Assembly: GCA_023231475.1 (NCBI GenBank)
Contig: JALJEE010002225.1
Span: 1 to 45,450 of the forward strand
Length of the DNA: 45,450 nucleotides
Direction: 5' to 3'
Origin: Seison nebaliae
Taxonomy: Eukaryota
Position 1 is the stretch's first letter. Each line of letters begins with the position of its first letter. A model generated the notes under the pieces. That model was not told the DNA's origin, made no database searches, and was given only the letters and a program-made list of their open reading frames with translations. A program made the position numbers and the translations under genes. Of this stretch, positions 5,286 through 45,450 are shown piece by piece.

Positions 5286-5573
5286 GTAAGTTATATTTAG
5301 CAGTCGCAGGGACGATTGAAGCACGAGGCTATTTTCTTTACAATTTATAATATTATTATTGACTTATTCCGCATAAATTCTCGCTGAAAGTTTCTTTTAT
5401 TTTACATTAATTTTTTATGATATACCTCCATTTTTTTCAATGAACATTTAATGATTGTTTATGCATATAAGAATAACTTATGAATAATTTTAGCTTCATT
5501 TTTACAGTTTCTTTTCCTTCATCTACTTCTCCTTTCCTATTATACATAATTGTGCGAAGTTTCGGTGAAGAAC

Positions 5574-7851: not shown

Positions 7852-10342
7852 ATGAATGAGAATGATTCAGATGATTGTTAGCAGTTTTGTTTGTTTCCTC
7901 GCACGCTTAATCTTACCAAGTTCTTAAAAAATATGAATCCGGAATGGTGCAACCATTACCATCCTTAGATCACACATTCAAACAATATATAGACAATATT
8001 ACACCGTTGCTAACTGAAAATGAATTAGCGTATTCGAAATCATGTGTAAAAGATTTCTTGAAAGAGAATGGATATGGTAGAAAATTCCAAAAAATTATAG
8101 AAGAAATACATGAGAAAAAGAAAACATCTTGGGTAACTTTTTACTCTATTTCAATTTTTATTATCATCTTTTTTACAGTCGTTGGATGCTTGGTTGAATG
8201 AGATGTATTTCGATGTTGATTTACCGGTTATCATTAATTCTTCTGCATGTACGGTAATACCAAAGAAATTGCACTTATCAACTGACGATTGGCTAAGGTT
8301 TTTTCTTCTAAAATTCTCCAATTTCACCATTTTTATTACCATTTTCTAGTTATTCCGCAAAAATTATTTTATCAATTATACACTTTCGATATTTATTATT
8401 AAGGTTCTTAATCTAACTAACTCTCATCATATTGGTTACTTCTATAATCTCCAGTGGACAGATACCTCAAGAAAAAAGTTGCACCCATAATGCCACATCT
8501 CATTATTGTATGAATCAATATCGTTCTTTATTCAATGTACATCGACATCCTGGAATTAATCGTGATTATCATGTCATTAAGAAAATGGAGAATGATACTC
8601 TGAAATTTATGGTGTCTTATAAATCGCAATTATTTATTATTACCATTCCTATGGGTGATTACTTGAAAAAGTTTAAAGAGAACATCAATACCGCAGAAGA
8701 ATTCCTAAATATTTTCAATACATTGAAAAGTATTGTAGATGGAAATTGTTTAAATCAGAATATTTATGAAAATTTAACAAGCGATGAAAATTTTTGTTTA
8801 TTCAACTCCATCAATATTCTGACAACAAATTCAAGACGAGAATGGGGTGCTCAACTATTAACAATACGTCGTTATGGTTAAAAATATATTTAACATTTTC
8901 CGCCCAATAATTGTATTAAATATTTTTTGAAATAGTTTCCGATAACGAGGATAATATTAAACACATTGAATCTGCCGAATTTCTCTTATGTTTAGATGAT
9001 TGTCAATCATGTTATAAAGATTTAACTGAACAATCAATGGCACATCAAATATTTCATGGAGGTGGTTCCAGACAATTTACATCCAATCGTTATTGGGATA
9101 CAACGTTGCAAGTTACTTTTATTAGAAGTTCAAAATTATTCTTCAATTAACTTTTAGATTGTTAGTGGGAAATCTGGTGTCTCGGGTGTTATAGTGCAAC
9201 ATTCGGCATGTGAAGGAGTGGTCACTAACCGTCTATTAGAATTTATCTTGAAAGGAATCAATAATTACAAAGATATAAAATTATCAAAGACGACGAGATA
9301 TAATATTCGACCAATCATATGGAAACTTCCTAGCACCTTAACGAGATGGTTGAGCAATGCTGAAAATAAAGTAGATAAGTTGAATAAAATTCTTATTAAA
9401 GATTATTGAATATCTTCATTTTGATAGATCGATCAATAATATTGACTTGTATATAAACCGATTCCACGTATTTGGAAAAAGATCAATTAAATTAATGAAA
9501 ACCAGTCCTGATGCATTTATTCAAATTGCTATGCAATTAGCTTATTACCAGTTGAAATAATTTTTGAACTAATTTTGAAAAAGAATTAATAAATTTAATA
9601 GATTACATGGACATTTTACGGCTACATATGAAAGTGCCAGTTTGAGGCAATTCCAGTATGGTCGTGTGGATAATATTCGAGCATGTCATCCTGAAAGTCA
9701 ACAATTTGTGTTAGCGGCTAGCAAGAATAACCTTATTAGCAATCTAATAAACAATATGTTATTTGGGAGAACGAATAAAAATGTTTAAAATTTTTCTCGT
9801 AATAAAATTTAAACGTAAATGAATTGGTAATTATTCCTTAATATTTGATTAGATAACTGTTGAATATGAACAATTACAAAATTTGTTGCGATCTGCATTG
9901 GGAAAACAGATTGAAATCATTAAGTTAAATGTTAATGGTATGGGTATGGATCTTCATTTAACAACATTGAAAGAAATGAATAAAAAGTACGCAGAAAACG
10001 GAGAACTCGATTTATGTGAAATATTCCGTGACAAAGCGTATGACGTAATCCAGAACTTCCGATTAACAACTAGTCAAGTTAGTTTTTGAATTGTTATTTT
10101 CATCAATAATCAATCTTCAATTTGGTTAGTTGACAACGAATGATGCTAATATATTTGGCTATTATGGACCGGTAAAAGTTGATGGATATGGATGTTCTTA
10201 TAATATTCAGGATGAGGAAATATTGTTCGTTGTTACAACTTTCAAAGAATGTGGTGAAACTGACTGTAAATTATTCGCGTGGGAATTGTATAAATCATTA
10301 ATCTTCTGCTCTGCCGTTTTACAATTGACTTTTACAAAATAA
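7852..10342 (+). CDS. ChAT: Choline O-acetyltransferase, 11 exons (N-terminus may extend to the exon at 5224-5285)
   Basis: Exons 7852-7876, 7921-8132, 8179-8297, 8350-8403, 8455-8876, 8936-9111, 9158-9378, 9428-9550, 9602-9782, 9853-10077, 10130-10342 total 1971 nt (656 aa). Motifs: PLPSL, WLNEMY, catalytic QHSACEG, SPDAFIQIAMQLAYY, YESASLRQFQYGRVDNIRA (VDN is the choline-specific signature versus TET/TDT in carnitine acyltransferases), LTTSQ and GPVKVDGYGCSY. Confidence 0.95.
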
Positions 10343-10988
10343 TCAGAGAGTGTTGGATCAAAGTGTCTATAATCGAAAAACTTTCCAAACTTCCCGTTTT
10401 ATAAATTATTTTAATTAATATTTTTTTATGAAATAGATTTATGACAAATAATATAGTTAAATAAATTTTAATAATATTTACAAAAATAAGAAAATAAAGA
10501 TTAAGTCAACCGTATGTTCATTATCAAGATTATACTATAATATTATACTAAATTGTATTGTACTACATATTCAATTACTAGAATGAGATTCGATCAACTT
10601 TTCCTACTAGTAGTTTTTTTTACTAAAATAGTTTAATGCTCGGAATTTTTTCCTAATATGAATGAATTGCATTCTCACTTGAAAATTTCATTGAACTCAC
10701 TTTCATTCAATGAAAGTGGTTATCTGCAATGTGGTTAATGTCTATTCGAAGTATGAATAAAGTCCTCGCAAAAAATGAAAACTAAAGCGAACTGAAACAT
10801 GAATGAACATCACTCTACGTAATATATCACAAACAAACGTTATCTCAATTCGAATGGTTTGATAATAAATTTAACGAAATATTTATTAAGTAAAAATTTA
10901 GAAATATTGGAATACAATTTAACCCATAAGATAATGGAAATTAATGAACGACAGAATGAATAGCTATAACTGTATATTATAATAATGT

Positions 10989-13379
10989 TTATAAAATATT
11001 TTTCGAAGATGAGTTTAAATTTGTTAATGGATATTTATTATGGTACCATGGTTGTAATGATGGTTTATTGGGCAACCAATCAGAAGTTGGTCTTAGAGAA
11101 TGATAAAATTTCTTTAAATTACATTGAAATAGAAAAAAAGAAACTGAAAGTCTAACTTGTTTGAACGTTTTTCCTGAACTTTTAGTTATTTGTACATATG
11201 CATAAATAAGAATAACCACAACTGGAGAATAACCAATAAACCATCCTAGTCGAATTGCGGATTTTGGATAATGAAAATCACCATAGAACGGTTCAGTTGA
11301 TAAAATTAGATTACCCAGTAAAATACAAAACAATATAATAGGAACAACGTATTTCCACAAAATTTTCCATACAGATCGATATTTAAATTCTCCGTTGAGC
11401 ATTAGAGCGATATCGTCTAAAAATCGATCTATCCCATATATCCAACAAACGACGACACATTCGATTATACAAATTGCGAAGGCCATTATTGTGGCAATAT
11501 ACCAATCTATTAAAGTATACCAATACATACCAGCTTTCGTTACGAATAGCAGAGCGGTGCAAAAAAACAAGCATCCTGTCAATATAGTTACAATGACTTT
11601 TTGTCTACACAACTTTGGCCACTGATCAAACATACCAGATAATACCGTTTCTAACATACCAAACTAAAAATAATTTTTTGAAACTTATATTTAAATTTTC
11701 ATAAATCTATTTTCAATAACTTGGGTGTCGATACCTAACGTGAGTACAGTGAGGAAGAATAAGAGGACCCAAATATGTGGGAAAGGCAAGGTAGCTAGAG
11801 CTTCGGGAAAGACGACAAACGCTAATGCTGGACCTGTTATATGTACCAATATGATAATATATATGATAAATAATAAAAATAATAACCGTTTGTAGCTACT
11901 TGTTCTATCGGTAAGCCAGTCATAAAGGAAATATGACCGAGAGTAGAAAAAAGAGCTAAGCCGCAACAGAATGCTGTTATTGTAACGACAATAGGAATCA
12001 TCAAGGTATAACTTTTTAATTAATTGTTGTAATTTAATAAGAAGTTTAGAAAGAGAAAATATTAAAGAAACCGAATAATATTCACGTTAAAATTGTTGTA
12101 ACTGGATAACGTAATTAGTCCACCCCAACCAGGTCCTAAGGTAAAAAAAATTTGTGTTGCTGCTTCCAACCATACCTATTTAATACAAATAAAGAACTAT
12201 TTATTCTACAAGTAGAAGAACAAACATTTGGATTCAACATTTTCTTCCATTGTGGAATAATATATTTTTTGGCTCCAATAGACGAACCTTCTAAAGTTAA
12301 ACCCCGGATCATTAGGATCATAATAAAAATGAAAGGTGATGTGGCTGTAAACCATGCAACCTTTAGATATTACTGATATCATAAAGAAATAAAATGAAGA
12401 GGAAACCTTTCCTGATGTTTTTACTCCTTTGATGAGAGCCAAGATGCAAATAACCCAAGAGATAGATAAACAGATTAAAAGACCATATGAAAACCCGGAG
12501 AGATCGTAGACACCACTGGATATTTGAAGTATGCGATAACTTTCAACAATTTTATATAAATCAACTAAAGAAGTAAGATAACTGAAAAAATTCATCACTA
12601 GCAGTTTTTCCAATCCCATGCAATGAATTATTCATCAACGAATTAAAATTTGAAATATTTTGAGTTAACATAATTGAAGTATTTGCAGAACAATAATGTT
12701 CGAGTTCAATAAACGTATTTGATTTATTTAAACCCATCTTATAATTACATTCACTTTCTATTAAATTAATTATATTTGATTTAAGCTTTTTCAAATCCAT
12801 TCGATCTATACATTCTCCACTATTATAACTGTGTCCACATTTGGACCATGGAAGTACCTTGTTGAAGATTTCATAAATGAAAAACAAGGAATAGGCCATA
12901 ATCGCGTTGTAGTAAGTCACACAAAGGGCGGATAGAATAACCATTGTCGTTCCAACACCAGTAGCAATTGGACAAAAACACCAGACAGTAGCCGGACTTT
13001 TACCTGAGAATTGACCGAGACACATTTCTAATGTGAATAGAGGAATGCCCCCGATTGCTAATAAAATAATGTAAGGGATGAGGAATGCACCTCCTCCATT
13101 TCTCACACAAATATATGGAAATCTCCAGAGACAACCAATACCAATGGCAAAGCCAAACGATGATAACAAAAATTCAGAATTACCTTAATTGCATAAAAAT
13201 TATTTTTTTTAAAAATATGAAAAAAAACTGGCCCATTCGTCACGTTTTTTAGTTTCTGGTTTGGATTCATCATCTCGATTTGACGAACAAATTGACGGTG
13301 GTCGAACTTGGAACAAAGTTGATGAAGTTAAATCGGTAAGAATTAAACATTCGTTTTCTAAAACTTTCGATTTCTCCAT
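10989..13379 (-). CDS. SLC6 (neurotransmitter:sodium symporter) family transporter, amino-acid-type, divergent; 9 exons
   Basis: Exons 13379-13229, 13183-12583, 12539-12407, 12360-12226, 12175-12072, 12011-11887, 11833-11721, 11663-11157, 11111-10989 total 1992 nt (663 aa). Motifs: [64 protein letters not shown] and LGIDTQFG. Confidence 0.93.
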
Positions 13380-13989
13380 TATTTGTGGTGTAAGAGGTGG
13401 ATTAAATCGTTTAATTTAAATTTAGAAATGAAATAAATTTAATAAAAGTTGTATGAGCGAAGTTTTGTGTATAAAAAAAATATTCTTACACAAATTTCTT
13501 CACATTAGTTACCTAAACTTATTTTACTAGGTAATAGATAATAATCATTTATTTCTATTGAACATTTATACTTGTGATAAATTAATGAATGACGTTTCTT
13601 TTTATGCTTATTCTATATCTATAAAAAAATCAGCAAAAAACTTTCAGTTGTGAAGATTTTCAACTGATTTTTTAAAGGTTTTTTTAACTAATCAATTTTT
13701 TATAAAGTAATTTTAGGAAATATCGATCCTAGGAAAATATTTTGTATATAGTTAAAAAGAGCTTGAATAGGGCTACAGGATAATGTAAAAACTTTTAAAT
13801 TTTCAAAAATCGGGAATACTCGAGCAATCGAGAATTTGGTTTTTTAATCGAGAATTTTGATGTGCAATAAGAAAATATCAAACATATTTACATAACTGCA
13901 TTTTGTATACGGAGTCTACCAAACGTCCGTCTACCAAATGACCTTGACTCCACGTCTACAGTATAGCATTGGATACGGGAGGAGTCCCG

Positions 13990-14490
13990 ACGCCACAAAT
14001 ATGAGGTATGATCAAGATGTTTGACGGATTTCGCTAATATTACCATATCATCTGCATGAGCGAGCATAGTTTAAGCGAAACAGGAGACTGTCGATTGTGA
14101 CCTGATAAGTGCGAAGACCGATCCTTGTCTGATGCCGTTGTTGATGAAGAAGACATAACCGGACGAATGGCCGAGTAGAACGGAACCATATGAATGGAAG
14201 CAGAGCTGCTGGATGAACGGTATGGCAGTAGATTCCACTCCTTTGGCTGTGAAGCGCTCCAGTGTGGGAGCCATATTCTCCGTGTTGAAGGCCGTAGACG
14301 CATCTAGGAAGAGAGCGACGCCTATCGGTATAAAATAGACAATTGAGTAGTACGAGAAGAAGATGAACGACTCTATCAATAGGACGCCATATCATTTGGA
14401 ACGTTAAAGAGTAAAATGATGTGCGATATTTGGCGAGAATGAGACGTTGGATTAAGCGAAGGAGAAATGAGGAGATAGATATCGTCCTTT
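13990..14490 (-). mobile_element. Decayed non-LTR (LINE) retrotransposon reverse-transcriptase fragment
   Basis: GC-elevated island. The minus strand gives, in order and across frameshifts/stops: RTISISSFLLRLIQRLIL (cf. YRPISLL..KLLE), ALFLDASTAFNT (cf. FLDFSKAFD), INNGIRQGSV (cf. GVRQG), TIDSLLFRLN, and LAHADDMVILAKS (YADD box, 14047-14058). Confidence 0.85.
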
Positions 14491-15197
14491 AGGTCAAAAA
14501 ATATAGTCAACGGTTAAAAAGTTATATTTATCAGTTATAGTCAATTCAAAAATAATTTTTATTTGACTAAACTGGTGTAACGAGTACGATCACGATTTAT
14601 TTAGAACAACTGAATTATAAAATATAAATATGAATGTGAGTTCTTCGACCCTTTCTTCTCAAATGATCTTTTCTTTTATAGTCGTCCCTCGTCACTTTCT
14701 TTACACGATCTTTCTTTTTTCACATACTCTCTTCTCTTTATTTCTTTCGCTTTCTCTTTTCTCATCTTCTTCTTTAGATCCTCTAAGCCACCTCCATTAC
14801 ACTGGTTTGGACAGAAAATTTTAGAAAGAAAATTTAATTTCATTTATTAAAATAAAGAAACACTAATACAAATTAAGTTTATTGTTATTCTCCTCGTAAT
14901 TAATATACACGATTAGTAGATGAAATGTGTATTAATTGTGTATTATTTGAATTAAAAAATTCATCAATGTATATGTTAATCATGAATGATGTAAAATGAA
15001 GATTATGATAATTTGTCACTAGATTAACAGTGAATTATTGGATATTAATAGAATGTTATATACAGGAAACATTGATAAGAAATAATAAAACAATCTGGTG
15101 ATGGGGAATCGAATGTTGAGCAATAAAGAAGAAGAAGTAGGATTAGAAAATCGAAAACTGAAAAAATGATCTAATGAAAATAGAAACAGATGAATCA

Positions 15198-18100
15198 TTA
15201 AGTTCCATTTTGATCATTTCTTATCATGTTCTTACTTGTCGATCTTCGATAATTTTTAGTTTTATCGACATTGATCTGCATTTCTTTCTCAGCATTAGTA
15301 ACTTCACCGGCTAATAATTTTGAGTTGCTACTTTTGCTGATAAGTTTCTTTGATTTATCGGAAGACGTTTCATTTGTTTGAAGTTGCTCTTGTGATGTAG
15401 GAGATGTTGGTATCCACATCGCCTGTTGATTCCCCAGATTGTGAATAATTGCTTTCGTTGTGCGTAAGAGTAACGGATATTCCATATCGGTGTTAAGAAT
15501 CGCTGAAAAAGAACTGCCAAACTCTTGCTCTAAATTTAGCATTTGACGATATTGTTTTCTTGCATCTTCGCTCTTCAATCGATTATTCAACTTCCTTAAA
15601 TTAATTATTCAAATATCAAATTATCAATTCTAAAAATTTGTCTACTAACAAAAGACTTGATACGCTTGTTGGTTTAATATAGATTGAGATGGGGAAGCGC
15701 ATAGCTGCCTGTAATCTACGGATAGCATGTCCACTAACATCGAGTACCGCATGTTTATTCTTTAATCTCAATGAATAAATGATATTATGATATATATATT
15801 AACTTGTTGAATGACATTTTCAACACTCTGTAAACTAGTTCCATAAAGATTTCCTTTAAATTGGCCGGCCTCGATGAAGCATAAGTTTGCTATATCCTCC
15901 TCCATTTTCTCACGACTATTGACAAAATAGTAATCTTTTCCATGAAGTTCATCTTCACGTTTTGGTCTGGTAGTATCTTTATAATTTGATTGTTGAAATG
16001 AAATACGAATTATATTAATGATATTAATTGAATACTAACGAGGGATACATGACCGAAATTTATACGGTTCACTCGCGATTAAATCGTCATTTAGTTGATC
16101 TCTCATTGCACCAAGAATAATTATCGGCTGAATCATACCTGTAAAAAAATGGAATGTTAAACACACCAGATAACAAGAAAATGTTAACATGATTGCTTTG
16201 TCACAATTTCATATGACATAATGGTATTGTCATTTGGATCTAGTTTCATTAAAAGAAATTTAGTGTTGAATTTTTCAAAATTTTTTAACAAAAAAAAACC
16301 TTCAATCTGATTTTTAACTTCATTCGTATTATTCGGTTCGTCCAATAAATTCTGTTGAGATTTTCTTGATAAACTCAAAGTAAAACGAGAGCCAAATGTC
16401 GATTTTTTCGTCTTTGTTTTCGTTTCTTCATCATTTCCATTCGTCTGACAATTGTTGTTATTATTTCCATTCAGATTACCATTCATATTAATAGTATTAC
16501 TATTGTTATTGATGTTGTTGTTAGATTTGTTGTGACCAGATTTAAATCCAACACGTCTTCTTCTTGCCTTCTCTTTTCTTTCTACACGTTGTGCTGATGG
16601 TATAATACCCATGGTTAATGACGAATTTGAGGAAATGGTTGATGCAGATGAGACACTATTGTCATATGAACTATTCCCACCAACTGCCATATTAGCCAAT
16701 TGATTGTCATCTGGAATAACGTTCAATACTCTCTTAGCTTGCCACCATTCAATATCAGCCGCATTAGTAACATGTAAAATATCTCCATAATGGAATGAGA
16801 GACCGCGGCCTGGTATACCGGCATCCTTTCCCGGATCATAATCGAACAATGTTCTAAAAAGTTCATAAGAATCAAATAAAATTTCTTCTCTAATTATACA
16901 AAATTTTAACTTGACATAGAATGATCGTTTTTGTGATGTTTTCAAACTACCCATACTGGCCCATGATACTATTGGTTCAATGATTCTTTCTTTATATTCA
17001 TCGACATCTGTCAAATTAGAAGAAGAAACATTTTTCAATTAACAACGATAATTGATGATTTCAAGGTAAGAAATTAAAGATGTTTGTTTAAAGAAAGATG
17101 TAAGACAATTTTAGAAAACAAAACAAAATTATACTCGATTGGAGAATTTGAATAGAAATGACTTAGGAAATGATGGATCTTATATTATTCATAATCATAA
17201 TAATATTATGAAGATATAACATCAAAAATATGAATTGGAATGATATGCAATCTCTTAAACTATTCATATTTTCGTTGTTCCCATCTATTACTTCCGGCTA
17301 TTCATCATTCGAATAATATCTCTGGACTGGAATGAATATGAAGAAGAGAATTATTTTAATATCACCAGATACCGTCAGATAAAAAAATTCCAATTATTTC
17401 TTAGAGAATGACGGGATTTATTTACAAATAGTGGAAAATATATCAGATGTATGCAACATCTTTTTGGCATTATTAGAAATTAAGATTCTTTATGAATTAT
17501 CATCATTGATTAATCAATCGAAGGAAATATCCTTCAACATTTCAAACCGTACATTTCCTTCCCAATAACGAATGAATCTCATACTTTTAATCAAAAGCGA
17601 AATCAGGACGAGTATGATATGTGATTTGGTCATTAGAAAAGTGTGATACAATATGGTGCGACTGCACATAAAAATACAATAGACACCAATGTTGACCTTA
17701 TATGTGAGAATGAAATATCATCTAAAACTATTAAAAAAAAAGGATTTTACATAATACACATGATAATTGTACAATATAACTATTCATATGTAATAATAAT
17801 TGAATATGAATATTAATTATAGTTAACTTACTCAATTGTCTTTATAATCGAATTAGAAGAAGAAAGAGGAAGATAGTATCATAGTGATTTTATTGGAATA
17901 AAAGAATAATTTAAAAATTTTCTCATTTGAAAAGACAATATTCTTCTAAAATTCATCATCTTCCTGTTGTTTGGCGTCTTATTAAACATTAATTGTTCGA
18001 TTTGAATTCGATCAACACGAGCAAGAAATCAATAGGAACTTCCTGGAAACATTTAGAACTATTTTAATTCTTCACAATTCAGATCAATTAATCAGATAAT

Positions 18101-27100: not shown

Positions 27101-30100
27101 GACTGACTCGTCTCATGGAAGTGGTGTGGATATGCTGGTATTATGATGTGAGGGTCGATTTGCGGATGATGTTGAAGAGAATTGTTATGAGGAGAATTGT
27201 ATGGGATTCCCTCCTGTTTAGTACATTGTTGTTGAATGTTGACTGGTAATGTTGGTTCGATCGTTTTATTCTGCTTCCGATCGTTAAGAACGGCGCTGGA
27301 AAAGGCCGATAATCCACCAATTATTTCTTGAGAGTTAATTGAATCGTTATTCTTTAAAGGATTTGATGATAGAAGAGAAATATATGTTTGAGTCAAAAAA
27401 AATTTTACTGGATGTTTATAAGATGAATTCTCATAAATTATAACATTAGATGATAATTATTAATTTTACTAATAATAATGTTAAGTTATTCATGGATAAC
27501 TAATAGATAATTATCTTTCCTCCTATTTCTCTCAAACAAACATCCTACAACTGTATATTAATAATAATAATAATAATAACAATAATATATTATTAAATTA
27601 TTTTCAGGTTAGTTTATATACTTGTAATGATTACACCTAATAATATTCCCATATTCCTCCAAACACACTTTTCTCAAATATCTTTTCGACATACTGATAA
27701 TAATACTTCATTTTTCATTGATGCTTACGGAATATTACATAAGTGAATTGTCAATAAGTAAAAATTAATATAACAATCGAATAATGACCATTCTAACGAT
27801 AATGAGAATTTCGTTTGATTGAGCAGCAAGTTCATAGGAAATTTCATGAATGAATCATTCAGCGCAGTTCCCTAAAATTTCCCTTTTGAGAAAAAATTAA
27901 TGGAATGTGATATGAGCAAAAAATTTCCTTTAGTCAAATAGACAACATACCAAAAGAAGAAAAAGCATCAACCAAATTTCGCTGTTGTTTATGTTCCACA
28001 AAAATGGATGAAGAAACTGATGTTCATTTTATCTCTCGTTCGCTAATCAGATATGTACAATAATAACATTCTTAAAATGCTAATGGACGCAAAATTTTGA
28101 GTTGAACTTTATTATTCCTCTTCATTTTTCTTATTCATGTCATCCAGAACATTTCAACGAACATTAACTTTGATGATTTAAAATTTTAATTCGTGAACAT
28201 TCAATTTATTCTCCACCGATAGGAATTAGGAAGGGCCGGACAGATAGTAAACTAAAAAATAATTGAATACATTTGATGAAATGAATTTATTTAAGATTCA
28301 TTGGAATGTTTACTTATATAAGATTAGCTCACACATACTCACCTTTAAATGTTAATGAATGACTCAACAAATAGTTGAGATGGAATATAATATAATTATG
28401 GATTGGTTTCATATGATTCCATATCTTTCGCTTCACTCACTCATAGTATAGTGTGGATAAATGCATAAATATTATTGTTTTGATTAGTGTGAACTCTAAT
28501 AATATTCCCATTTATTTATTCAGTTGCCTGTACATAATATAATTATTATACCACTATTCACCCTCTAGCAATCATAGGTGGTATTGTTGAAATTCAGAGG
28601 AAATAAATAAATAAACTACATAATAATATAGTGGAATTGATACACGTACGAGGAATAAATTCACAGGAAGATGTTGTTGACTTTCTGCAGCTGGCCGTAG
28701 GTATACACTAATACCAAAAATATGAATTAACTAAACTATCATTAAAAATGATTTATTAATGGAAGAATAGAGAATTTCACATTAACCAAATCGATTGACA
28801 AGATCTCATTACAGATATTCGACGTGATAACTAAATGAAATTCCCATTTCCAATATTTTTCTGGTAAAGATTTTTTTACTTATAATCTGATGTCATCTTG
28901 TCAACAATTCGTCAAATTCTGTTATCTGATTTATTAGGAACATGTAGAATGAAGGAACTGGTGGGATTAATAATAATACATCTTACTTAACCGAAACACA
29001 ATTGCTCATTGTAAGCAAATGAAGGAGGGGGAGAAGACTCATCAATGGAAAATAAATCGATCAAAACATCGGAATAAAAGAATCTTATTAAACTCAAGAC
29101 GATTGTGCCATATATTTCTGCCATGTCTTGAATACTTATGGACAATTGTGCTCGTACGGCCAAATAAATATTTCTAGCTCAACACTCATTCGACATGCAG
29201 TCAGTCATCCAACTGAACATCACATCAATTGTGTGGATTATAAGAGAAAAAGTTTAGGAAATATACGTACGTACAATTAGTATTCGTTTCGAACAATATG
29301 TTCATTTTATAACAATATTCGTCTTCCTATTATTCTTCCTTTCCATTGTCGTATATCTAAACGAACCACAAGTAAATAAATGCGTCAAATAATATGCACA
29401 TAACGATATTAATTATCGGTGCACATATTCATTTTCATTATTTCTCTTCGATTTATATAATATTATGTCTGATGTTCTTCTAATAAATTTCTTTTATTCC
29501 ACATCATATCCAAAAGATATTCTCATTTTATTTATATTTTTCTTATTAATTTTTGCATTTACACATACACACACATACACACATACACATTGACACATGT
29601 GCACAGTCATGATAATGATAAAAATAAGATCAGGGAATGTATTATTATTTTATAATTTTTATTTTATAGAAAAAAGAGAAATTTTCCTTCCAGTAAAATT
29701 CTTTCCTTCATCTTCTAAGAATACTTTACTTTCCATTGGTATAGAATAACAATAACAACAACACTATATAGAACAATAAGTGGAATAATAAGATTCGACT
29801 TTTACATTATTGCAATCTATTCAACTGTGCCCATTTCGTGTATGCAAGTGAATATTCATAAATATACATCATCCAACTCTCAGTCATCCACAACTCAATA
29901 AAGTAAATTTGATTTCGCCACAAGTACTATTATGACGTCGTATTTTCTTGCACGTACATCTGATTTAATCAAACCACAGTCTTACTGTGTAAAGTGACTG
30001 ATGGAAGTGTTATCGAAAAGAAAATAAAAGTTTCCATATCATCAGCTGTCATAAAAATTCATAATCGAACATGCAAATTATATTTTGTAGCGAAATTAAT

Positions 30101-31140
30101 ATTAGTCTATGAGTAAAGCGAACGTGAAAAATTATTTATAAAATCACCCCGAAAAACGACTAGAAGTTATTAAACAGACATTATTTTTCCATTAACACAC
30201 AATTGCACGAAGCGACAAAAATTTCTAATAAGAGAAAGAAAAAACTTACATGATTTTTCAATGGATCTTCTTCCATCAATTCACTTTCGTTATCCGTCGT
30301 GTAGACATTATGCGACTTGGTTAAACGATTCTCCGATTCATTCGATTGTTTCTCATCTAACGATAAATGATATTTGTCTAGCGGAACTAATGCTGATTTA
30401 TTAAGAGCAACAATATTTTGCATAATAATGCTACTTCTTTCACTTAAATTGTTTCTTCGTTTACATTCATCACTGGATTTGGATGAAGTTGAAGAATTGA
30501 AATTTGACCGCGTAGAGAATGCTGGTGAGTTTTTCGATGAAGTTTTATTCATTTTTTGAATTGATTCATTATTATCTAAATTATTTTCTATAGATATTGA
30601 TGATTTTGGATATGGAATCTCTTTTTTCGGTTTCGGCGATGAAGTTGCTTCCGGTTTCTTTAATTCCGTTTCAAAACAATAATCGTATTCGTCTTTCTTT
30701 ATTTCATTGAGATTGTTACCATCAATTATTTCTGTTGCTTCATTCCACTTCATTTGCACATTCGCTGTTTTGGATTCGTTCGTGGCCACGGATGATATTC
30801 CAGAAGTTGTTACTGTTGTCATTGATTTACTCAAAATTGCTTCACCTTTCTCCTTTCCACTAAACGAATTTTTATAGTTTAACAAATCTTTCTGATTCCA
30901 CTTGCCAATCATGGATTGTGAAACTTGAACTTTCTTTGACAAAGGAACATTCTCATCGAGGAGAATGACATCATAAAAATTGTACATTTCAACTAATGCT
31001 TGAAATAATTTCGATTTGAATAATCTCACCAATTTTTCAAGATTCGTTCGCAGTTGATGTTCCTCATGATTTGCCAATTTAACTGCATAATCTTCGATTA
31101 ATTCCAATGCTTTATGAGCTTCAGTTGCACGAACACTCAT
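15198..31140 (-). CDS. dlg1: Discs large (DLG1/SAP97-like) MAGUK: L27-PDZ1-PDZ2-PDZ3(degenerate)-SH3-GuK; 13 exons
   Basis: Exons 31140-30250, 27351-26593, 24961-24887, 24831-23225, 23167-22962, 22928-22776, 17007-16911, 16853-16300, 16239-16189, 16138-16040, 15976-15804, 15759-15650, 15594-15198 total 5172 nt (1723 aa). L27: [21 protein letters not shown]1: [11 protein letters not shown]3: [26 protein letters not shown]. GuK: PHTTRPKR..FIEAGQF..LYGTS..AIRRLQ. Exon 2 and the PDZ3 exon boundaries are less certain. Confidence 0.92.
24352..24378 (-). repeat. Poly-Gln (Q9) tract inserted in DLG PDZ2
   Basis: (CAA/CAG)9 between LGFSIG and VVITRLI. Confidence 0.9.
29561..29603. repeat. (CA/ACACAT)n microsatellite in DLG intron 1
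   Basis: acacatacacacacatacacacatacacattgacacatgtgca. Confidence 0.85.
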
Positions 31141-34100: not shown

Positions 34101-36217
34101 TTATGAAGCACACCACTTCACCCGGATAAGTGTGTTCTTCGAACAAACAAATTTATATTTAACATCATTTGAAGATTTGACGGAAGAGAAATGGAAGAAA
34201 AGTAGAGACAACCAAACACAATTTACATATATATAATAGTAGTATAAGGAAGCAAAAAATAGAATTGACAAATGAAGGAACGCGAAGAGATTCTCTTCAA
34301 GAGAAATTCTCTTTGGCTTCATCAGATGAATGAACATGCATATGGTGTTTTCAATAGAATTAAGGAGTTATGATCTCAACTCGCCTGGAGATATGAGAGA
34401 GAACAATAATCAATTTAATTTATCATTTAAGTAAACGATTTCCATGATTTACAAAGAATGATGTCATCATACTGAATTGATTATCTTTTCACGACCATTG
34501 ATACCATCATTCTTTCCTAATGTCACTTCACTATGATTCATCGTCGAATAAATGAATTATTTCGATTTATTTTCAGTTTATTGCTTCGTTTCGTTCAATT
34601 CATTAAAGGGAGAAATATAAAAAAAGTAAAAGAAATTTAACAAAGAAAGAATTAAAAAAAGTTATCTTTTTCTCTTTTTTCCCGAACAAAAGGTGTTTGG
34701 ACGTACATGTTAAAAGTTTCGTATTTTAGGTACTAGCTAAAACTTGCTAGTCAAAGGAGATAAACGGATTAACATTCTCATTTTATCCTTAAGAGAATAG
34801 AGATGGAAATAGAAATGAAGCTGCTAGGGTTTAGAACATCTTGAAAGGCTAACTCGTTTTTAACGACTTATTTTCAATTCATCTTTCAATATTACATGAT
34901 TATTTTTAACATTTCCGGCACTTATACAAATTTTTCCATTCGTAATATGATGTTCACAATTATTTTCCATTAAAACAGTTCTCATCTCAAATAGAATTTT
35001 TACATTTTGGTAATTTATTACAGTTTTCTGGGATCAAATTCAAATGGTCATCGTAATTATTATTGTTAGATAAGAATGAATTTAAACATTATCTAATAGA
35101 TCGCTATCTATCATTATCTCTTATCAAAACATTTTAAGTATTTAATAAAAAAAGAGGTGTAATGTGTTTGATTTAGATTATCTGACTTTAATAGACGTAA
35201 TTGCTATCTCCAGTTACTCCCAATATTGATATAAAATATAATTTCCTAAAGATTGTTTATTTATTTATTTATTCTACAATTATTATTTCCGTCATGTTCA
35301 AAGTTCATCGGAAATAAAGTGATGAATAAACAAATCTCTTATTGGTTGACGGTAAATATTGGATCCATTGATTCTCTTCACCTGTCGATTACATCCGACT
35401 GTAAAATATATGAATATAACTGTTAATAAACATTACCTAAAAATAAAAGCGCTACTAAAATAAAGGTAGTCTTGTAAATTAAAATCGAATTAAAAGAAGG
35501 AAGTATTTAACATGGAAGGTTGGAATGATGTTATCACCTACAAAATTATTTACAAACTATTCTTTAAGAATAATACTATGAATAACATTATAAAAATGTG
35601 TCTCCTCACTCTTATTCGACTTAAGTGGAATACGATATATATAAAGAGATCGTTATCAAGATTATGATAGTTACCTATTCTTCTCCGTTGTTTACTTGTT
35701 ATTAATCGTCCATTAAAACTTTCGTGTCATAAATTCATTTAATACTTCACTGACTGGAACTTGTGATAAAATGCCTAAGACATAGAATATTTCCAACTCG
35801 ACTAATTATCATAATTAATAACGGATAACTTATTGCATGGTAACATATTTCAATTTGAATTATATTTCGAAATGACTGAACTGAATATAATCATATTTAT
35901 TTTACTTACAGCACATTCCTCACTACTAAAGTTTTTAGTAAATTAGATCAATGTCTAATTCAAATAATATTATTAATTGACTTAATGAAATGGCGGGAGA
36001 TAATCATCAAACTAATAACAATAATTTGGAATTCAGATAACAATTGAAATTTTTCGAAAATTTTTACGTTCAAAACATCACATTTATTTTAAGATTTTTT
36101 TATTTTACTAGTTTTCTAGAATGAAATAAAAAGAATGACTAGACGTAAAATTTTAGAGAACAATAAATATAATAGAAAATAAAGTAATCTGAAAAAGATT
36201 TTAGATTATAAATCTGG

Positions 36218-37672
36218 TTAATTCGTTGCTATTTGTTTGGAGGAACTATGTGGCGCATCATTATCAGTTTTAGATGATTTACTTACATATTCCCAATTAT
36301 GTACCATTATCTTTTGAACGGCTAATAATGCTTGATATCGAACATTCGTATCAGGATGAGTTAACAGAGCCATAATGATCTGTTTCCCACCCAATTGTTC
36401 CAACACATGCTTACCACGACCATAATATCTGACATATTGTCCGAGATCATGAGCCGCAACACAAATTGATAATGGATCTTTATTTTCTTTCAGACATTGA
36501 ATAAGAATTCGAATTAACTCATAATTGTTCGCATTTAAATTATGTGCATTTTCTGCCCAGAACTTTTCTGACTTATGAACTGGCGACCATTCTAATTGTC
36601 TTGTTTTAATTTCTGCTTGATATTCATCGAATGATGAAATGCCATCAATTCTCACTTCTAATTCTTTACAAATATATTCCAAGTCGTCTTTTAATTCAAT
36701 ATCTTTAATTTCTTTTCCTTCCGTATAAATAGATAATCGTCGAAGAACTTTCAAATGTACCATAGTAACAGCATTATTCTTTCTCATTTCTTTATCTTCC
36801 ACAACATCCAATAAGTTCCTTAACAAAGCACAAACAATTCTCACTACTTTCTCACGAGCTGAATCTCCAATTAATTCAGTAAAAGCTGCGAGATATTTCG
36901 GTTTGGATATTTGTTCGGCAAAATCTTTCTCATAAGTCAATTGCCAGAAAACGAAGCAAATTTGATAATGAATTTGAAATCCAACATTTTCACATAATAA
37001 TTCTAGAAATCGTGGAGCACATTGGTTCGCAATAATCGCTATACGATAGTCTTCAATTCTTGCCATATACTGGAAACATCTACAAATGTTTTGAGTAAAT
37101 TCCTTTTCTCTTCCCAACTGATCTTTCAACCAAGTTACATAATATGTCAATTCTCTTCCTTTTAAGCGTTGATCCGATTTCCCCCAACATGCCAGTTTCA
37201 TAACGATTCGACAAATCATATTAACAATGAAATCATTCGGTCGCACTAACATCAATAGAAATGGTTGCCAAACACTCTCATGTTTCTCTTTTGCCATTGC
37301 AAAAAAATATTGACAAATCGTCGGATTTTCTTTTAATAGATCATCCAATAATGTGAGAATGTATGCCACCATCTCATCTTTCGGTAATGCTCCGAATAAG
37401 GTGGTAAAAACTTGCACAAAACTTTTTTGAAAACTCTCTTCCGTAAATAAATCTTTTCTTTTAATTGGAGATGATTGTAAAATTTGAGTGATGATACGAT
37501 GCTCTTCTTGATTGATAATTTGAGCCTGTAAATAACTCTGCCAATTTATTCGTTTCTCCCGATAAATATCAGCTCGCTGATGAAATTTAGAAATAGCGGC
37601 ACGTTTCTCTTCTTCATATGTCGCTAAAGATGACATAGTTCTCCCATCATTTCCTGGTAGATTAGTGGCCAT
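36218..37672 (-). CDS. ATP6V1H: V-type proton ATPase V1 subunit H, intronless
   Basis: 484-aa ORF with INWQSYLQAQII, YILTLLDDLL, GFQIHYQ, REKVVRI, SSFDEY..E...LEWSPVHKSEKFWAENA, VAAHDLGQYVRYY and VRYQALLAVQKIMVHNWEY. Confidence 0.97.
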   Translation of the reverse strand: MATNLPGNDGRTMSSLATYEEEKRAAISKFHQRADIYREKRINWQSYLQAQIINQEEHRIITQILQSSPIKRKDLFTEESFQKSFVQVFTTLFGALPKDEMVAYILTLLDDLLKENPTICQYFFAMAKEKHESVWQPFLLMLVRPNDFIVNMICRIVMKLACWGKSDQRLKGRELTYYVTWLKDQLGREKEFTQNICRCFQYMARIEDYRIAIIANQCAPRFLELLCENVGFQIHYQICFVFWQLTYEKDFAEQISKPKYLAAFTELIGDSAREKVVRIVCALLRNLLDVVEDKEMRKNNAVTMVHLKVLRRLSIYTEGKEIKDIELKDDLEYICKELEVRIDGISSFDEYQAEIKTRQLEWSPVHKSEKFWAENAHNLNANNYELIRILIQCLKENKDPLSICVAAHDLGQYVRYYGRGKHVLEQLGGKQIIMALLTHPDTNVRYQALLAVQKIMVHNWEYVSKSSKTDNDAPHSSSKQIATN

Positions 37673-39023
37673 GACTAGATAAATTATGAATTAAAATGAA
37701 GTCAATCTCTATATGAAATTACAATTAATTATTAACTATTATTTACCAAATTTATGTCAATTATATAAACAAGAGAAAAATAGGACTATGAAATGGAAGA
37801 AACAAATTATATAACGATTTTTTGGAAAACAATTCGGCTAAATATTTGGAAAAAATACAAATATTTCTATAATTCTTCTAGGACAAATAATTATAAACTG
37901 TGCATAAGTAAGAAACGCGTTATAGTATTTTTTTTATAGTCAGGAGATTTGAGAGTTTCCTATAGATTTGTATCCAATGGATAGATTTACATTCGAGAAA
38001 AGAAAAAACTTATCGAATTTATTAGGAAAAGCTATCATTACATCTGGTGCTTCAAATGAGGTTGTAAAGAATAAATATTTGATTCAATTTTCGAATGAAT
38101 CGAATGTTAGATTAATTATTAATTAATTTTTAGTAAATAAAATTTTAAAGTTAATTTTTCTCTTATCGTTCTCTATGAATGATAATATTTTAAGAACCCA
38201 TCGATAAACTCTGGATTTCTGTGGTTTATTCTTTATTCACAAATATTCCAAATGGAAAATTTCCTACCTATTTTATGATATTCAACATTACAAAGATTAC
38301 TTAATTAGACCAGTTTTATAAAACCTCATAACTGTCCGATTACTTTAAGTTTTTTTTTTTTATTGCAGATGTAAATCCCTATAGGATAATTGATAATTTC
38401 TACTTCATTTCATTCAAGAAAACAGATTTTTTAGCGACTCAACGTCTCCAAACATCAGAGATTTACAAGAATTAATAAATAAGAGTGAAAAAAATTAAGC
38501 TAGAAAGAAGGCTTATTTTCAACATTAGAATTTGTATTATATATTTTTAAAAGGAAAGACAAGAAAATCATTTTCCTAATTATACTATCCAATATCTTTT
38601 AATTGTCTAGGAACATATGAAACATCGTAATATTGAGAAGAATCGGAATAATTTGGCAATAATTTTTTTAATTTTTCTTTTGAATAAATATCGTCTTCGT
38701 TTCATTACTCTTCTTGTTCAAAATATTTCCGTTTTGGTTGAATATTTTCATTGTCATTTATTAACTAAACTCTCAAAATAACTCAATATACGTAAAAGAT
38801 AAACTTCTTACAATAGTAGCACTATTACTTCTAAATTTCGTTCAGTGAAAGTGGAAAGGAGATATGATGAAATTCGGTAAAAACTCTAATCTGTTTCTGT
38901 TTATTTCATTTTATTAATTTCTTTACTATTCAGAACAATATTTCTATTTATAATTTGTTTATTATGTTATTATAAATTTAGTAATTCAGTTTAGTTGGTC
39001 GAATAAAAAAATTGATTTGAAAA
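37673..39023. promoter_or_regulatory. Divergent (head-to-head) intergenic region, probable bidirectional promoter / 5' UTRs
   Basis: Lies between the start codons of ATP6V1H (-) and the GGT-like gene (+). Very AT-rich, with no ORF. Inferred from gene orientation only. Confidence 0.45.
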
Positions 39024-41406
39024 ATGGAAAAAGCATTAGGCGATTTTACATTATATGATGATTGTTAATTTTCGCATTTATTTTCTTTCGAAAAATTTAA
39101 ATGAATTGGAATTGACTACTCTATTTTTCAAGTGATACAACCTCTGGACGATGATCCACATATTGATTTAGATGTGCAAGAAATAGACCAAAATAATAAT
39201 GCAGATGACAATAGTGAACCCAATCCATCTGCCGCACCTCCTATCCAACCAATGGGCGAATATTCACCATTAAGAATAATGAATCCCGCTATTGGATATC
39301 TCGATGAGTTTTTGTTCATTTCAGAAATTTTTGAATTTCCACTATATATTTAGAGAGGCAAAAAGAAGTTTAACTATCATCATTTGGAGTACGATAGTGC
39401 TGACTATTATTATAACAATTGCCCTTCTCATACAAATTTTCGTTGGACTGCCTCAAGTTTAGACTATTCTTTTTCATTATATATATTTATTCAATAACAT
39501 CATTAAAGATCTTACCAAATGGTGTCATTATGAGTAATGAAGCAACATGTTCAGCTGTCGGTAAAAAAATTTTGATGGAAGGAGGCCAAGCTGGAGATAT
39601 CGCTATCGCTGTAATGTTCTGTCTAGCCACTGTAAATCCGTTAGGATCTGGAATTTCAGGGTTCTTAATTGTTTTTCGTGTTTTTATGAGAAATGTTTTA
39701 TGTTGAGTAGAGGAGGATTTGGATTAATACGAAATCATCGGGAAGGCATAAATAAAGTAATAAATTTCCAATTTTTGAATCCTGTTGATTCGCATTATAA
39801 TTATTCTTATGCATTACCTCGTGAAATGGAAATGTTAGAATATTTAAAAGAAACATATTCAAAGTTAGAAATTCAAATGAAACACAATTAATTCATTCAA
39901 AGTAACAGACTTCCACTATCTACTCTTTTGGCAACACCTATCAATTTGGCAACTAATGGTTTCCCCATGAGTAAAGGATTCATAGACCTGCTCATAAGTA
40001 AATATGATAAAGATAACGATATTCAAGTGCTTCCATTGTTCCTTCAAGACAAGTCAAAATGGAAAGTAGGAACAATCGTCAAACGACCAAAATTTGCTCA
40101 CATTCTTCAACAAATTGCTAATAATGGAATTGGATGGCTAAGAAATGGAGAAGTATTCGAAGCTATTCAAAAGAAAGTTTTAATATTAATGACGTATTGA
40201 AATTTTAGAATGTTCTTTAAGTTAAAACCGAAAGGTTTATCGGATCGTCGGAATTATGTGAAACCGCAAATTCATGTTCAAGAATCTAAAGGAATGGCCA
40301 TCAATCAAGGTTTTCTTCCTGAAAATTTTTATTATTTCATTCTCCATCCATTTATTAATTAATCGATCTTCTCAGATTATCAAATTCATTTACCAATTGG
40401 TGCTGATCAATGTACAGGTTTAGGAGCTATGGCTGTAGTTAGTGGTAAATTAGAGAAAACGTTAGAAAAGAAAGATTCAGAGGTTACCAATGCAACATTC
40501 ACACCAAATCTCTATCATATGTTAATCGAAGCGGTGAAACATGTTTATTCGAAATCATTAGGAGATAGAACATCGTTCAATTCCTTCATAACAATTTATT
40601 ACTAAATTTTCTTCTTTTTTTAAGTGAAGAGTATTTAGATGGTCTAGTTGCTCAAATTCTCCAATTGAAAACTGCTATTCCAACATTGGAAACTGCTAAC
40701 GCGGCAAAAGAAATATTGGATCAAAAACCTGAAGCCGGTGCAAATTATATGTCAGTAGTGGATGGAGATGATGTTATAATTACTCTAGTCAGGTTAATGA
40801 AAAAAACCTCAATGAAGTGAAAGTAAAAGTAATTTGAAATTTTTTAGCTCATTAGGTTCAAAATCTCAACCGAATATTTGGACGCCTAACGGAATTCCAT
40901 TGAATAATGGAAGACTTTCATCACGTGGAAAGAAAGAAATTACATCACCGTCATTACCATGTCCAATTCATTATTATAGTGACTTACACCCTTGCGAGTG
41001 GCGTGTAGCCACTGTAGTTCGAGATACACCAGAAGAAGCATTACCATTTTTCATAGTCTTAGAATCATTATTCCTTTCCACCACTGTGGTACAACCAAGT
41101 AATTTGAAGAATGCTCTTCAAATTCCCAGAGTTGTTTGGTCGTCAGATTCGGGTAAATTGTTCTTCGAAAAAAATTTGCCTATTTCCGTACAAAATTTCC
41201 TCACTGTCACCACAAAACACCAACTGGTACAACTAGGAAATAATCCGGAAATGTTCGGAGAATTTAATTTACTTGCAAAATTGAAAACGGAACGTATCGC
41301 TCAAATGGATCAGACACATCAATTTGAATATCAGGAAACAATGTCTCCTCAGAAATTACCGTCAGCAGACGCACCAATGGTAGTTATGGTGAAACGAACT
41401 CAATAA
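39024..41406 (+). CDS. Gamma-glutamyltranspeptidase family, GGT7-like type II membrane protein; 10 exons; probably catalytically inactive
   Basis: Exons 39024-39063, 39133-39307, 39354-39456, 39509-39660, 39711-39863, 39909-40176, 40222-40309, 40376-40574, 40625-40792, 40848-41406 total 1905 nt (634 aa). The TM segment ITIALLIQIFVGLPQ resembles GGT7 VALVMQIYFGDPQ. Other motifs: CSAVGKKIL..GG..DIAIAVMFCL..VNP..SGISGGGF, PINLATNGF, HMLIEAVK and NGIPLNN. Confidence 0.85.
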
Positions 41407-41701
41407 GTATAATTGTAAACACAAACACTTTAGAATAATAACCAAATTTTATTAATGAAAAAAAACAAACAAACAAACAGAATGAAAAAACATTCCATTA
41501 AGAAAAATTGTATCTTTATTGTTTCAATTTGTTAATCATTCGAAGTAAACTGTCACGTTTTAATCGTGTTAGTTTAATTAATAGAATGATTATTTTTTAA
41601 TTGTAATTGAATTCCAATTTGTGAGTGATATATATATTATATTTTGTGGTATTCTTCAAATAAAATTTTATATATTATTTCAAATGTCCGAAATGTCAAT
41701 G

Positions 41702-44700
41702 TCATGATGAAAACACTTTCAATAAACTTCCCATATAACTCGAGCGATTTTTTGATAAATTCGACAGATAATGTTTAGTTGTTTCAAACTTATTTTTTAT
41801 TCCATTATCAATCGACCCAATTATATTTTCTTTTTTCAGAATATTTTCGTAAATCATTTGAAAGATTTGTTTATTCTCAAAATCCTTCTCATTCAATGAC
41901 TCATTCCAATTGAATTCCAATTCCTCCAAATCAATCATATCCTAAAGAATAGAAGAAATTTGAATTTTTAGAAGAATCAAATAAAAATGAAAACTCTTTG
42001 TTTCTTATCGGTCGTTAAACGAACAGTAAAAACATTGGTGATTTTTTTAAATTGTTTATTCAATTGAATTTTCGTATCCTGCAATTGAGCATAGAATAGA
42101 AATAATTTGAAGAAAGAGGAAACTTTTAAAGAAATAATTGCCGAATTGATGAGAGAAATGAAAGAAATTTGAAGAATTTCATTTATCACATTAATTCTAT
42201 CCAATTTCTCACTTATTTCTTTCCAATTCCATTTATCCTGACAATTTATTTCGTTATCAGTCAAATATTGTTGGATGTTGTCTAAAATATTCTCATCGTC
42301 TTGTAATGATTGAATGAATAAACTTAAAAGTTGTTTATCCCTTTTCAAATGTCTTATTGGAGAAGAATGAAGACGATTAAAGATGGATGGGATATTGGTG
42401 GAAATATTTTGTTCTTTCTCCAAATTTTTTGAATAATTTATTAATACTTTCTTTATCGAGTTTAAATGATGAATATCGCCATTTTCATTTTTATGAAATT
42501 TCATCGATTCTCTAAAAAAATCGATGACAAGTTTATCGAATTTAAATAATTCGATAATTTCATTCGATTCGTCGATAATTCGATATTCATGTAATTGTCT
42601 TGAATATGATACGGGAAGAAAAGGAGATAAGACGTTTGAACTGTCAATGATAAAATATCTCTTGTCAGTGTCAGTAATGTTGGGACACAATCGTTGAAAG
42701 ATATTACTTTTCCCAAACATGATTCCTAAAGAGTTGACAATTGAATGAATGAAACGTTTATGTGAACCTTCTTCACTTCCTAACTTCGCATAATTATTCA
42801 ACCAATTATCCCAATCGTCAGTTGATTTGATTGTGGATTGGAATCGATTAAGATATCTTCGTTTCATCGATTCGCTTTCCAATGAATTATCAGTTAGTGT
42901 TATGATATCGAACAATTCAAACATATTTGAAAATTTTGATTGAAATAAACATCTAGATATTTGCTGATAATAAATCGAACGATGTTCCCCATCTACTGAT
43001 AAGAATTTATTTAATAAATTCGATTGTTCAACATCTGAATTAAATAATGGGACATTAGGCACATAATCGACAAGGAAGACGGATAGCAGAGTATTCTGCA
43101 ATTTCATATTCTTCAAATATTTCGCTGATTCATCATAGAATTTGAGATGATTTCTATAAAAGAAATATGAGAATATGTTAAATGTTGTAAATTGGTCATG
43201 ATTCATTCTCTCCATTAAACTCATGATACAATATAATCTAATTCTTTCAATCTCTTCATCATCTGATGAAGGAGATGATGCTAAACAATATAATAATGAT
43301 AATAATAAAATATTATATCGTTTCATTTGATTTTGATCGTCTAACGGATGATTAATCATTTCTTTTAAATTATCTAAAAACTTCTCATTATATTTCTGAT
43401 TTGATTGTTGTACAGTGAAATTTGTTAAATTCAATTCATCCATTGATGATATATCGATATCATTCAATAATTGTTTATAAATTAAAAGTTTCTCATCTTC
43501 CTCTCGAAAATATTGGGGGTAGTCCAATTCCATCGAATGTCGTTTACCCTTCTCTATTCCTTCATTCCACAAACAATTGAGGAAGAGATGTTTAAAATCT
43601 TCTCTTGTATTCGGCATGAGATACGTATAAAGGTTTTGTATAGAATTACTGGAATTTTGAAGAATTTTCACAAATAATTTTGATAGTCGAAATCGATAAT
43701 TTGAACAGAAATTTTCATTACCAAAAATATTGAGAACATTAGTGAAAGTGAGACAGATATCTGATTTTTGTTTATCTTCTCGTTCCAAAACTTCCTCGAT
43801 GAAATTATCGCGATCAATCGATTCGATATGTTTAATTTGAATGAAAAATCGAATTATTTCATCAATTATTTTATCATAATATTCTTTCGTCATTGGAACG
43901 TTGAACAATTCCTTATCTAAATCATCGTCATTGAGTAATAGGCCGAGAACGAAATAAGGAAGGAATGGGAAAATATTGGAAGAAACCATTTGATCATATT
44001 CCATATTCTCGTCCATTCGCTCCTTATATTCCACAATTATTTTCGAATGTTCATTCTCATATTTCTTAATTATTCTGTCATAGATTCCTAATTTTTTCTC
44101 TAAAACTTTTACTCTGTCTCCTTTCTTCTCTGTAGAACTTTGAGATTCATCTATTTCCTGTTGTAATTTTCCACGATCCGATTTGGTGGATTTAATACTC
44201 TTTTCGATTTCATCAATTTTCCCCTTCTTCTCCTCTTTCAATTTTTCGATTGTTTGTCGATGATTAAAAATTATTTCTAAATTATTCTTACAAATTCGTT
44301 TCTTTAATTCTTTCTGATTTGGTTGTTGGAGAATCCAAACACAGAAAGCACAATGTTTCACGATGGAATTCAAATTGAAATAATGTTTAGGAATTTCGAA
44401 CATCTCTTCAATTTTCTCATAATTCTTCAAATGGAATAGGGCGGAAACATAAGCGAGGAAATCTTTCTTTGACGACGGCACTTGCTCCAAAAACGAATTA
44501 TCGATCGATGTGTCTTCTGAGTCGATGGATTGGAGGAACAAATTTACATGTCGATTAATTGCCACATTATAAATGGAGATTGATTTAATAAAATCAACAT
44601 CTTTCAACATCATTCCACAATATAATTGATATAAAGAAATGTCAGCACAATATGAAGTGATAACGTCAACATTAGGACGGATGTTCGCTTTCGGCCATTT

Positions 44701-45192: not shown

Positions 45193-45450
45193 TCTTATAT
45201 GATCCTGAAGAGAAAAAAGATCTTATTTTAAATTACTACGCGAAAAGAAAAGTAAAAATTAGGAAAAGAAAAATTGGAAAAATATTTAAAAAATTTAAAT
45301 TTTAACAATAAATATCCGAGAGATAATATCGAAAGAAGAATGTTTAAATTTACATAAAAGAATAATTCTCCTTCCATACATTTTGAACAGTTTTCGCCCA
45401 TTCTGGAATTTTCGTATTCAAAATGAAAGTTGGACAATCAAGAATTTGCT

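Follow-up and report, generated by a model that had tools for sequence, protein, structure and literature searches.

A uridine at the third intron base in 39 of 41 donor sites of five genes on a Seison nebaliae contig, and a possible matching change in U1 snRNA

Introduction

What is recognised at the 5' end of an intron if nearly every intron of an animal starts with GTT instead of GT and a purine? The question is raised by a stretch of 45,450 nucleotides (nt), hereafter the window, which represents positions 1 to 45,450 of contig JALJEE010002225.1 of Seison nebaliae and supplies a sample of five intron-bearing genes on one contig. Seisonids are small rotifers hosted by Nebalia crustaceans; the S. 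nebaliae assembly comprises approximately 44 Mb with 32% GC and compact genes, and two lineages have been described within the species (PMC8351084). Published sources were available as excerpts, and statements citing them are limited to these.

The purine at position +3 is among the most stable features of animal donor sites. In the literature searched, GTT-type donors were reported neither for Seison nor for any other animal, most subscription papers and the annotation paper of the assembly lying outside this search; the available parts of PMC10125929, PMC3488318, and PMC3033335 added nothing specific.

Placement of the donor sites

An initial annotation of the window had listed 41 introns, 39 of them starting with GTT, and this count was borne out, since all 41 hexamers are situated at real GT...AG intervals. 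The Wilson interval for +3U on this contig is 84-99%; the two remaining donors carry a purine at +3, and neither C nor G occurs there.

For 30 introns, referred to as the firm set, the boundaries are fixed by templates. Two S. nebaliae proteins deposited in GenBank are encoded in the window, SNEBB_003582 of the choline acetyltransferase (ChAT) type and SNEBB_003584 (DLG), and each has one unique mapping, despite GC, AT, and GA donors and AC acceptors being allowed. These mappings reproduce the 10 and 12 donors listed before. In case of the SLC6 gene, spliced alignment of the Seison paralogue SNEBB_004638 (77% identical, encoded on another contig) by an aligner blind to the +3 base reproduces all eight donors with gap-free junctions. 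Within the firm set GTT is found in 28 of 30 donors. All 41 introns have GT...AG ends; when the ChAT and DLG proteins were mapped (22 introns), different ends were permitted but never chosen.

As a check on bias, every in-frame GT/GC-AG alternative at most 45 bases away was scored with profiles built from further homologues (23 acyltransferases, the members of 480-760 residues among 143 SLC6 matches, and 4 MAGUKs). In each of the 18 ChAT and SLC6 introns, as well as in DLG introns 8-11, the chosen donor scored highest or had no GT competitor, and 21 of these 22 upheld donors are GTT; the remaining eight DLG introns gave ties, favoured a different acceptor, or lie beyond the profile. Intron removal thus restores a conserved reading frame, which a template fixes in 30 cases; for 22 of the 30, outside homologues or the lack of another GT lend further support. 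The 11 further introns are less firmly placed. Those of a gamma-glutamyltransferase (GGT)-like gene were positioned mainly by reading frame, the listed set being one of several valid solutions, and several of them have frame-compatible non-GTT alternatives. Matches in the PDB back the GGT-like donors 39661 and 40177, and a test of one exon yielded nothing relevant.

Comparison with chance and with control introns

A T follows GT at 1617 of the 3965 GT sites of the window (41%), at 37% of those in exons, and at 26 of 51 (51%) inside short introns. At least 28 GTT among 30 donors are expected with a probability of 2e-9 at the window rate and of 7e-7 at the short-intron rate.

Control introns were taken from 80 V-ATPase subunit H loci of metagenomes, of which 27 possible intron carriers were aligned, resulting in 101 intron calls with 14 GTT donors. 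Four loci were removed, one as a duplicate and three because their long introns exceeded the aligner limit, as were calls with weak flanks, without a GT donor, or of more than 200 nt, which left 61 introns in 14 loci. In these loci, which carry no taxon labels, the +3 base is A in 48, G in 8, and T in 5 introns (Fisher p=4e-16 compared to 28/30 in the firm set). A purine at +3 thus occurs in 56 of 61 control introns (92%) versus 2 of 41 in Seison, and GTRAG donors in 27 of 61 versus 1 of 41. GTT is rare in AT-rich control introns (2/24) as well as in those of at most 70 nt (4/28), so that neither AT-richness nor short intron length explains the +3U. In this respect the initial annotation, which had considered AT-richness insufficient, was right. 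The change of the donor code is real and statistically strong on this contig.

Further information in the donors

The donors are less information-poor than they first appeared. According to the initial annotation, positions +4 to +6 and the exonic -1 vary freely and contribute little, which was overstated. G at +5 occurs in 11 of 41 donors, against a background of 7.4% (p=1.5e-4) and versus 45 of 61 in the controls; in 9 of the 11 it goes together with A at +4. Compared to phase-matched exon composition, the exonic side is enriched for (A/C)AG, with -1G in 14 donors (6.9 expected), -2A in 25 (15 expected), and A or C at -3 in 35 (21 expected), G never occurring at -3. Furthermore, +9 is T in 30 of 41 introns (p=3e-4), the first 15 intron bases being T-rich in general (54-57% T at +7 to +15).

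At +4, A (20 of 41) and T (16 of 41) dominate. Of the 8 donors that follow an exonic AG, 6 have T at +4, compared to 10 among the other 33 (Fisher p=0.04, post hoc and one of three such tests); in the firm set the proportions are 5 of 6 and 5 of 24 (p=0.009, likewise post hoc). Two sub-classes, GTTAG and AG/GTTT (the slash marking the exon border), tend to separate in this way. A seesaw between -1G and +5G among the donors was not significant (p=0.28). At the 3' end, position -3 of the 41 acceptors is T in 19, A in 14, and C in 8, so that AAG acceptors are frequent; the pyrimidine tract is poorly developed, and in the 38 short introns none of four branch-point patterns rose above shuffled sequences. 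Taken together, the donors retain the ordinary two-class layout of animals, weakened and in normal register, with U instead of a purine at +3 in either class. Of the earlier proposal that this lineage reads its 5' splice sites differently, the shift from purine to U holds for the contig, while loss of the other signals and definition of introns by length only are weakened, because +5G and the exonic AG persist in their usual register.

Public DNA runs contain low-depth contigs of a divergent haplotype, approximately 85-87% like the window in exons. Donor 9112 is bridged by this second haplotype in two runs, and among the matches listed +1 to +5 are unchanged, with changes at nearby positions, which is at most a hint of constraint. 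Pieces of the same haplotype at donor 12582 end five bases inside the intron, so that they leave it unbridged and do not enter this count, and short matches of high depth at 11844-11881 and similar places are chance matches of AT-rich sequence. The contigs of these runs are DNA-like; over the stretches compared they contain no intron-skipping joints, which is uninformative on expression.

Intron type

The introns are best read as ordinary U2-type GT-AG introns of the major spliceosome with U at the third base. U12-type introns were rejected, as a ATATCCTT-type donor is found in none of the 41. Neither are they an introner family made by transposons, the best pairwise intron score of 30 being matched in 64 of 100 shuffles. 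The fixed GUUUGU hexamer of Entamoeba is present in only two donors. Donors in shifted register, with A at +5 and G at +6, were dismissed as well (both bases in 1 of 41): +6G is seen in only 2 of 41 while +5G is enriched, and the motif is hence not displaced by one position.

Explanations for the third-base U

The reading we favour, at a probability of roughly 45%, is a U1 small nuclear RNA (snRNA) that carries a complementary change at the base facing +3. The standard U1 sequence ACUUAC pairs with GUAAGU and is the first to read +3 (bioRxiv 10.1101/2022.06.08.495308), which subsequently faces G44 of U6, weakly (PMC11732430). An almost absolute U, devoid of C and G and mirroring the purine of the controls, would be the expected outcome of one U-to-A substitution in U1. 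Entamoeba, in which near-universal +3U is accompanied by a complementary U1, sets a precedent (bioRxiv 10.1101/2022.06.08.495308). In the Seison lineage, the U1 base opposite +3 would have turned from U to A, with ACUAAC as the predicted recognition sequence. Such a U1 would first pair with G/GUUAG-like sites and might then hand the AG/GTTT class to loop 1 of U5 and the GTTAG class to the ACAGA box of U6, where U at +3 could also form a wobble pair with G44. The register is kept as this reading supposes, with +5G in 11, +4A together with +5G in 9, and +6G in only 2 of the 41 donors, and pairing amounts to 6.7 pairs for the ACUAAC variant compared to 5.8 for the standard sequence. An Rfam scan of the window detected no spliceosomal RNA.

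Several points weigh against this reading. The better fit of ACUAAC is circular, because the variant was built from these donors, and the change itself is predicted from five genes of one contig. Among 12 donors in the stretch compared, the second haplotype properly bridges one. A standard U1 is retained in the majority of lineages whose donors are odd (Saccharomycotina, Micromonas, Thecamonas, and Giardia, as far as the excerpts go), and one chromosome of Micromonas illustrates that splice signals can vary within a genome. The animal Fritillaria also retains the standard U1 and has changed its snRNA methylation instead (PMC13326754).

Beside this subject, snRNA genes were encountered elsewhere. 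Contigs of bacterial metagenome-assembled genomes (loci L021-L027) contain repeated eukaryotic clusters of U1, U2, U4, U5, U6, and signal recognition particle RNA, in one case with 5S. The U1 of locus L021 has an ACAUAC-like 5' end, a variant reported for Physarum (bioRxiv 10.1101/2022.06.08.495308). U6-bearing loci were found from other eukaryotes, none of them in viral contigs, and their U1 genes look too divergent to serve as bait.

A possible, though rather unlikely, alternative is that a standard U1 has little weight and that donor choice has moved to U5, U6, and proteins, +3U being favoured by the wobble with G44, with the aid of a U-rich stretch at the start of the intron. Absence of METTL16, an unmethylated A43 of U6, or changed factors of the U1C/LUC7 type would be the causes. 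The initial annotation had suggested inspecting METTL16, SNRNP27K, and PRP8. A published BUSCO table of 25 syndermatans assigns METTL16 the score Missing for Seison only; the 24 remaining species have it whole or fragmented, the two acanthocephalans with the score Complete. For Seison, U5-40K is scored Missing too, SNRNP27K, PRP8, PRP6, and PRP31 are Complete, and rows for U1-specific proteins and LUC7 do not occur in the available part of this table (PMC12256650). SNRNP27K without METTL16 is described as tolerating +4A, which fits the mixture of A and T at +4; the weak +5G, the T-rich +7 to +15, the weak contact of +3 with G44 (PMC11732430), and Fritillaria, in which methylation and not sequence of snRNAs was altered (PMC13326754), also speak for this alternative. 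However, Seison is scored Missing for 356 of the 954 BUSCO genes, LSm2 included (PMC12256650), false absences are therefore likely, and the absence of METTL16 is a lead only. Moreover, in mutants and yeasts without METTL16 it is +4 that shifts, a change at +3 not being mentioned in the available text (PMC10581693). Since the known effect sits at +4, this loss alone does not account for +3, and its typical +4U is a minority here. The wobble is open to any eukaryote with a standard U6, yet the controls retain a purine. Under the favoured U1 change, a loss of METTL16 might help to explain the weak +4 and +5 signals, +3 being left to U1.

It is improbable that the ACAGA box of U6 has changed instead (G44 to A). 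Such a change would pair with +3U, remove the METTL16 target, and permit METTL16 to be lost, so that one event might link both observations, but ACAGA is invariant in 240 fungi according to the excerpts, typical in Entamoeba (bioRxiv 10.1101/2022.06.08.495308), and conserved in Fritillaria (PMC13326754), and U1 would still be mismatched at +3.

Still less probable is relaxed selection combined with T-rich mutation bias in short, length-defined introns without a specific preference for +3U. It would agree with short-intron interiors of 46% T, with lengths of 43-70 nt in 38 of 41 introns, with the missing branch-point enrichment, and with the most AT-rich control locus (25% GC, introns of 42-45 nt), where 2 of 5 unfiltered calls are GTT. 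Neutrality predicts approximately 45-51% T at +3, however, against 93-95% observed (p 7e-7); +4 and +6 are, unlike +3, close to background composition, and GTT is also used by two of the three kilobase-long DLG introns.

A very improbable artefact would be a GTT-biased choice of boundaries by predictor or reader, or an unrepresentative contig: the boundaries come from DNA of one contig and 11 of 41 donors were set by frame or resemblance, but of the 22 donors that outside homology or the lack of another in-frame GT fixes, 21 are GTT, and contigs from four runs, one of which may be the source, match the window where compared and argue against an assembly error.

Returning to the favoured change in U1, a more far-reaching version, in which Seison is an intron-rich animal with a genome-wide rewrite of its 5' splice-site code, a co-evolved base in U1 (perhaps also U6), and a U6 no longer methylated by METTL16, is tentative and rather doubtful. 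If U1 did change to match, a core rule of splicing would have been rewritten in an animal, which is rare. The one clear printed case of near-universal +3U that we found is the intron-poor Entamoeba, where few introns ease co-evolution; in an intron-rich animal it would be a test of whether core pairs between snRNA and intron can be altered at a very large number of sites, and of which RNA, U1 or U6, determines the +3 base. Several intron positions of the SLC6 and ChAT genes presumably match those of other animals; in that case, old introns would have been changed without moving. Gene prediction with splice models from other animals would be prone to errors in this lineage, which may inflate reported gene losses.

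Genes and other features of the window

Positions of the genes and introns are compiled in Table 1.

Table 1. Intron-bearing genes of the window and their donor sites.
Feature	Position	Strand	Remarks
Choline acetyltransferase-type gene SNEBB_003582	7852..10342	+	Pfam Carn_acyltransf, GenBank model; 10 introns, 44-70 nt
ChAT donors	7877, 8133 (GTA), 8298, 8404, 8877, 9112, 9379, 9551, 9783, 10078	+	GTT in 9/10
First exception, GTA-donor intron	8133..8178	+	46 nt; sole in-frame GT option
SLC6 transporter gene	10989..13379	-	8 introns, 43-60 nt
SLC6 donors	13228, 12582, 12406, 12225, 12071, 11886, 11720, 11156	-	GTT in 8/8
DLG/MAGUK gene SNEBB_003584	15198..31140	-	12 introns, GenBank model
DLG donors	30249 (GTAAGT, 2898 nt), 26592 (1631 nt), 24886, 23224, 22961, 22775 (5768 nt)	-	
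Further DLG donors	16910, 16299, 16188, 16039, 15803, 15649	-	GTT in 11/12 DLG donors overall
Second exception, canonical GTAAGT intron	27352..30249	-	2898 nt; GenBank model; outside homology ties with four other donors
Divergent GGT-like gene	39024..41406	+	at least 9 introns needed
GGT-like donors (initial annotation)	39064, 39308, 39457, 39661, 39864, 40177, 40310, 40575, 40793	+	all GTT
Large gene, no family assigned	41702..45192	-	one frame-required intron, one optional candidate
Frame-required intron of the large gene	41994-41942	-	three donor options, every one GTT
Optional candidate intron of the large gene	42123-42079	-	45 nt, in-frame, stop-free, inside one open reading frame, GTT

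The name NAA25, given to the large gene by the initial annotation, found no support, relevant matches in Pfam as well as any match in the PDB being lacking. Upstream of this gene a further exon and intron possibly exist at approximately 45206-45400 (-); the intron would extend over approximately 149 nt from a candidate donor of the GTA type near 45354 to an acceptor near 45206 and, if real, raise the number of non-GTT donors to three.

The ChAT gene is directly preceded by an intronless VAChT-like MFS gene (Pfam MFS_1) at 5568-7613 (+), and we take this pair to be the linked cholinergic arrangement. A single long open reading frame with a Pfam Ion_trans domain (733-2106, +) presumably resembles CatSper, which would be notable in a rotifer. 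V-ATPase subunit H is an unbroken open reading frame of 484 residues at 36218-37672 (-), where several control loci have multiple introns; its best other match is 47% identical. Between the SLC6 and DLG genes, at approximately 13880-14800, a high-copy repeat with a weak Pfam RVT_1 match (a reverse-transcriptase fragment) shows several-fold raised depth.

Comparison with known systems

GTT donors in shifted register, as described by Roca and Krainer, are reportedly expected to carry G at +6. Seison shares their GTT start but differs in the scarcity of +6G and the enrichment of +5G.

Nearest to the donors of the window are those of Entamoeba, with near-universal +3U, a complementary U1 (ACAAAC), and a normal U6 (bioRxiv 10.1101/2022.06.08.495308); the same source (Roy and Bowser) gives ACGUAC for the U1 of Mastigamoeba. 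Both Seison and Entamoeba have U2-type GT-AG introns and are reduced, host-associated lineages. In the intron-poor Entamoeba, however, the whole hexamer is fixed, with 88-90% GUUUGU(U), whereas Seison is an intron-rich animal, known here from its donors, in which +4 to +6 are loose.

With the two-class donors of animals and plants, NN//GURAG and AG//GU (PMC11732430, PMC11347140), Seison has register, separation of the classes, and the exonic (A/C)AG in common; it differs by U in place of R at +3 in both groups and by a much weaker +5G. The Saccharomycotina that lost METTL16 and SNRNP27K (PMC10581693) are similar in that METTL16 is scored missing and +4A/+5G are weakened, but the change in Seison sits at +3, +4U is not in the majority, and the METTL16 loss is a BUSCO score. 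Fritillaria borealis, finally, is likewise an animal with a reshaped donor code, whose altered N6-methyladenosine (m6A) in U1 and U6 suggests a route at the level of modification; it has abandoned GT-AG while keeping METTL16 and the standard 5' end of U1 (PMC13326754), whereas Seison remains strictly GT-AG.

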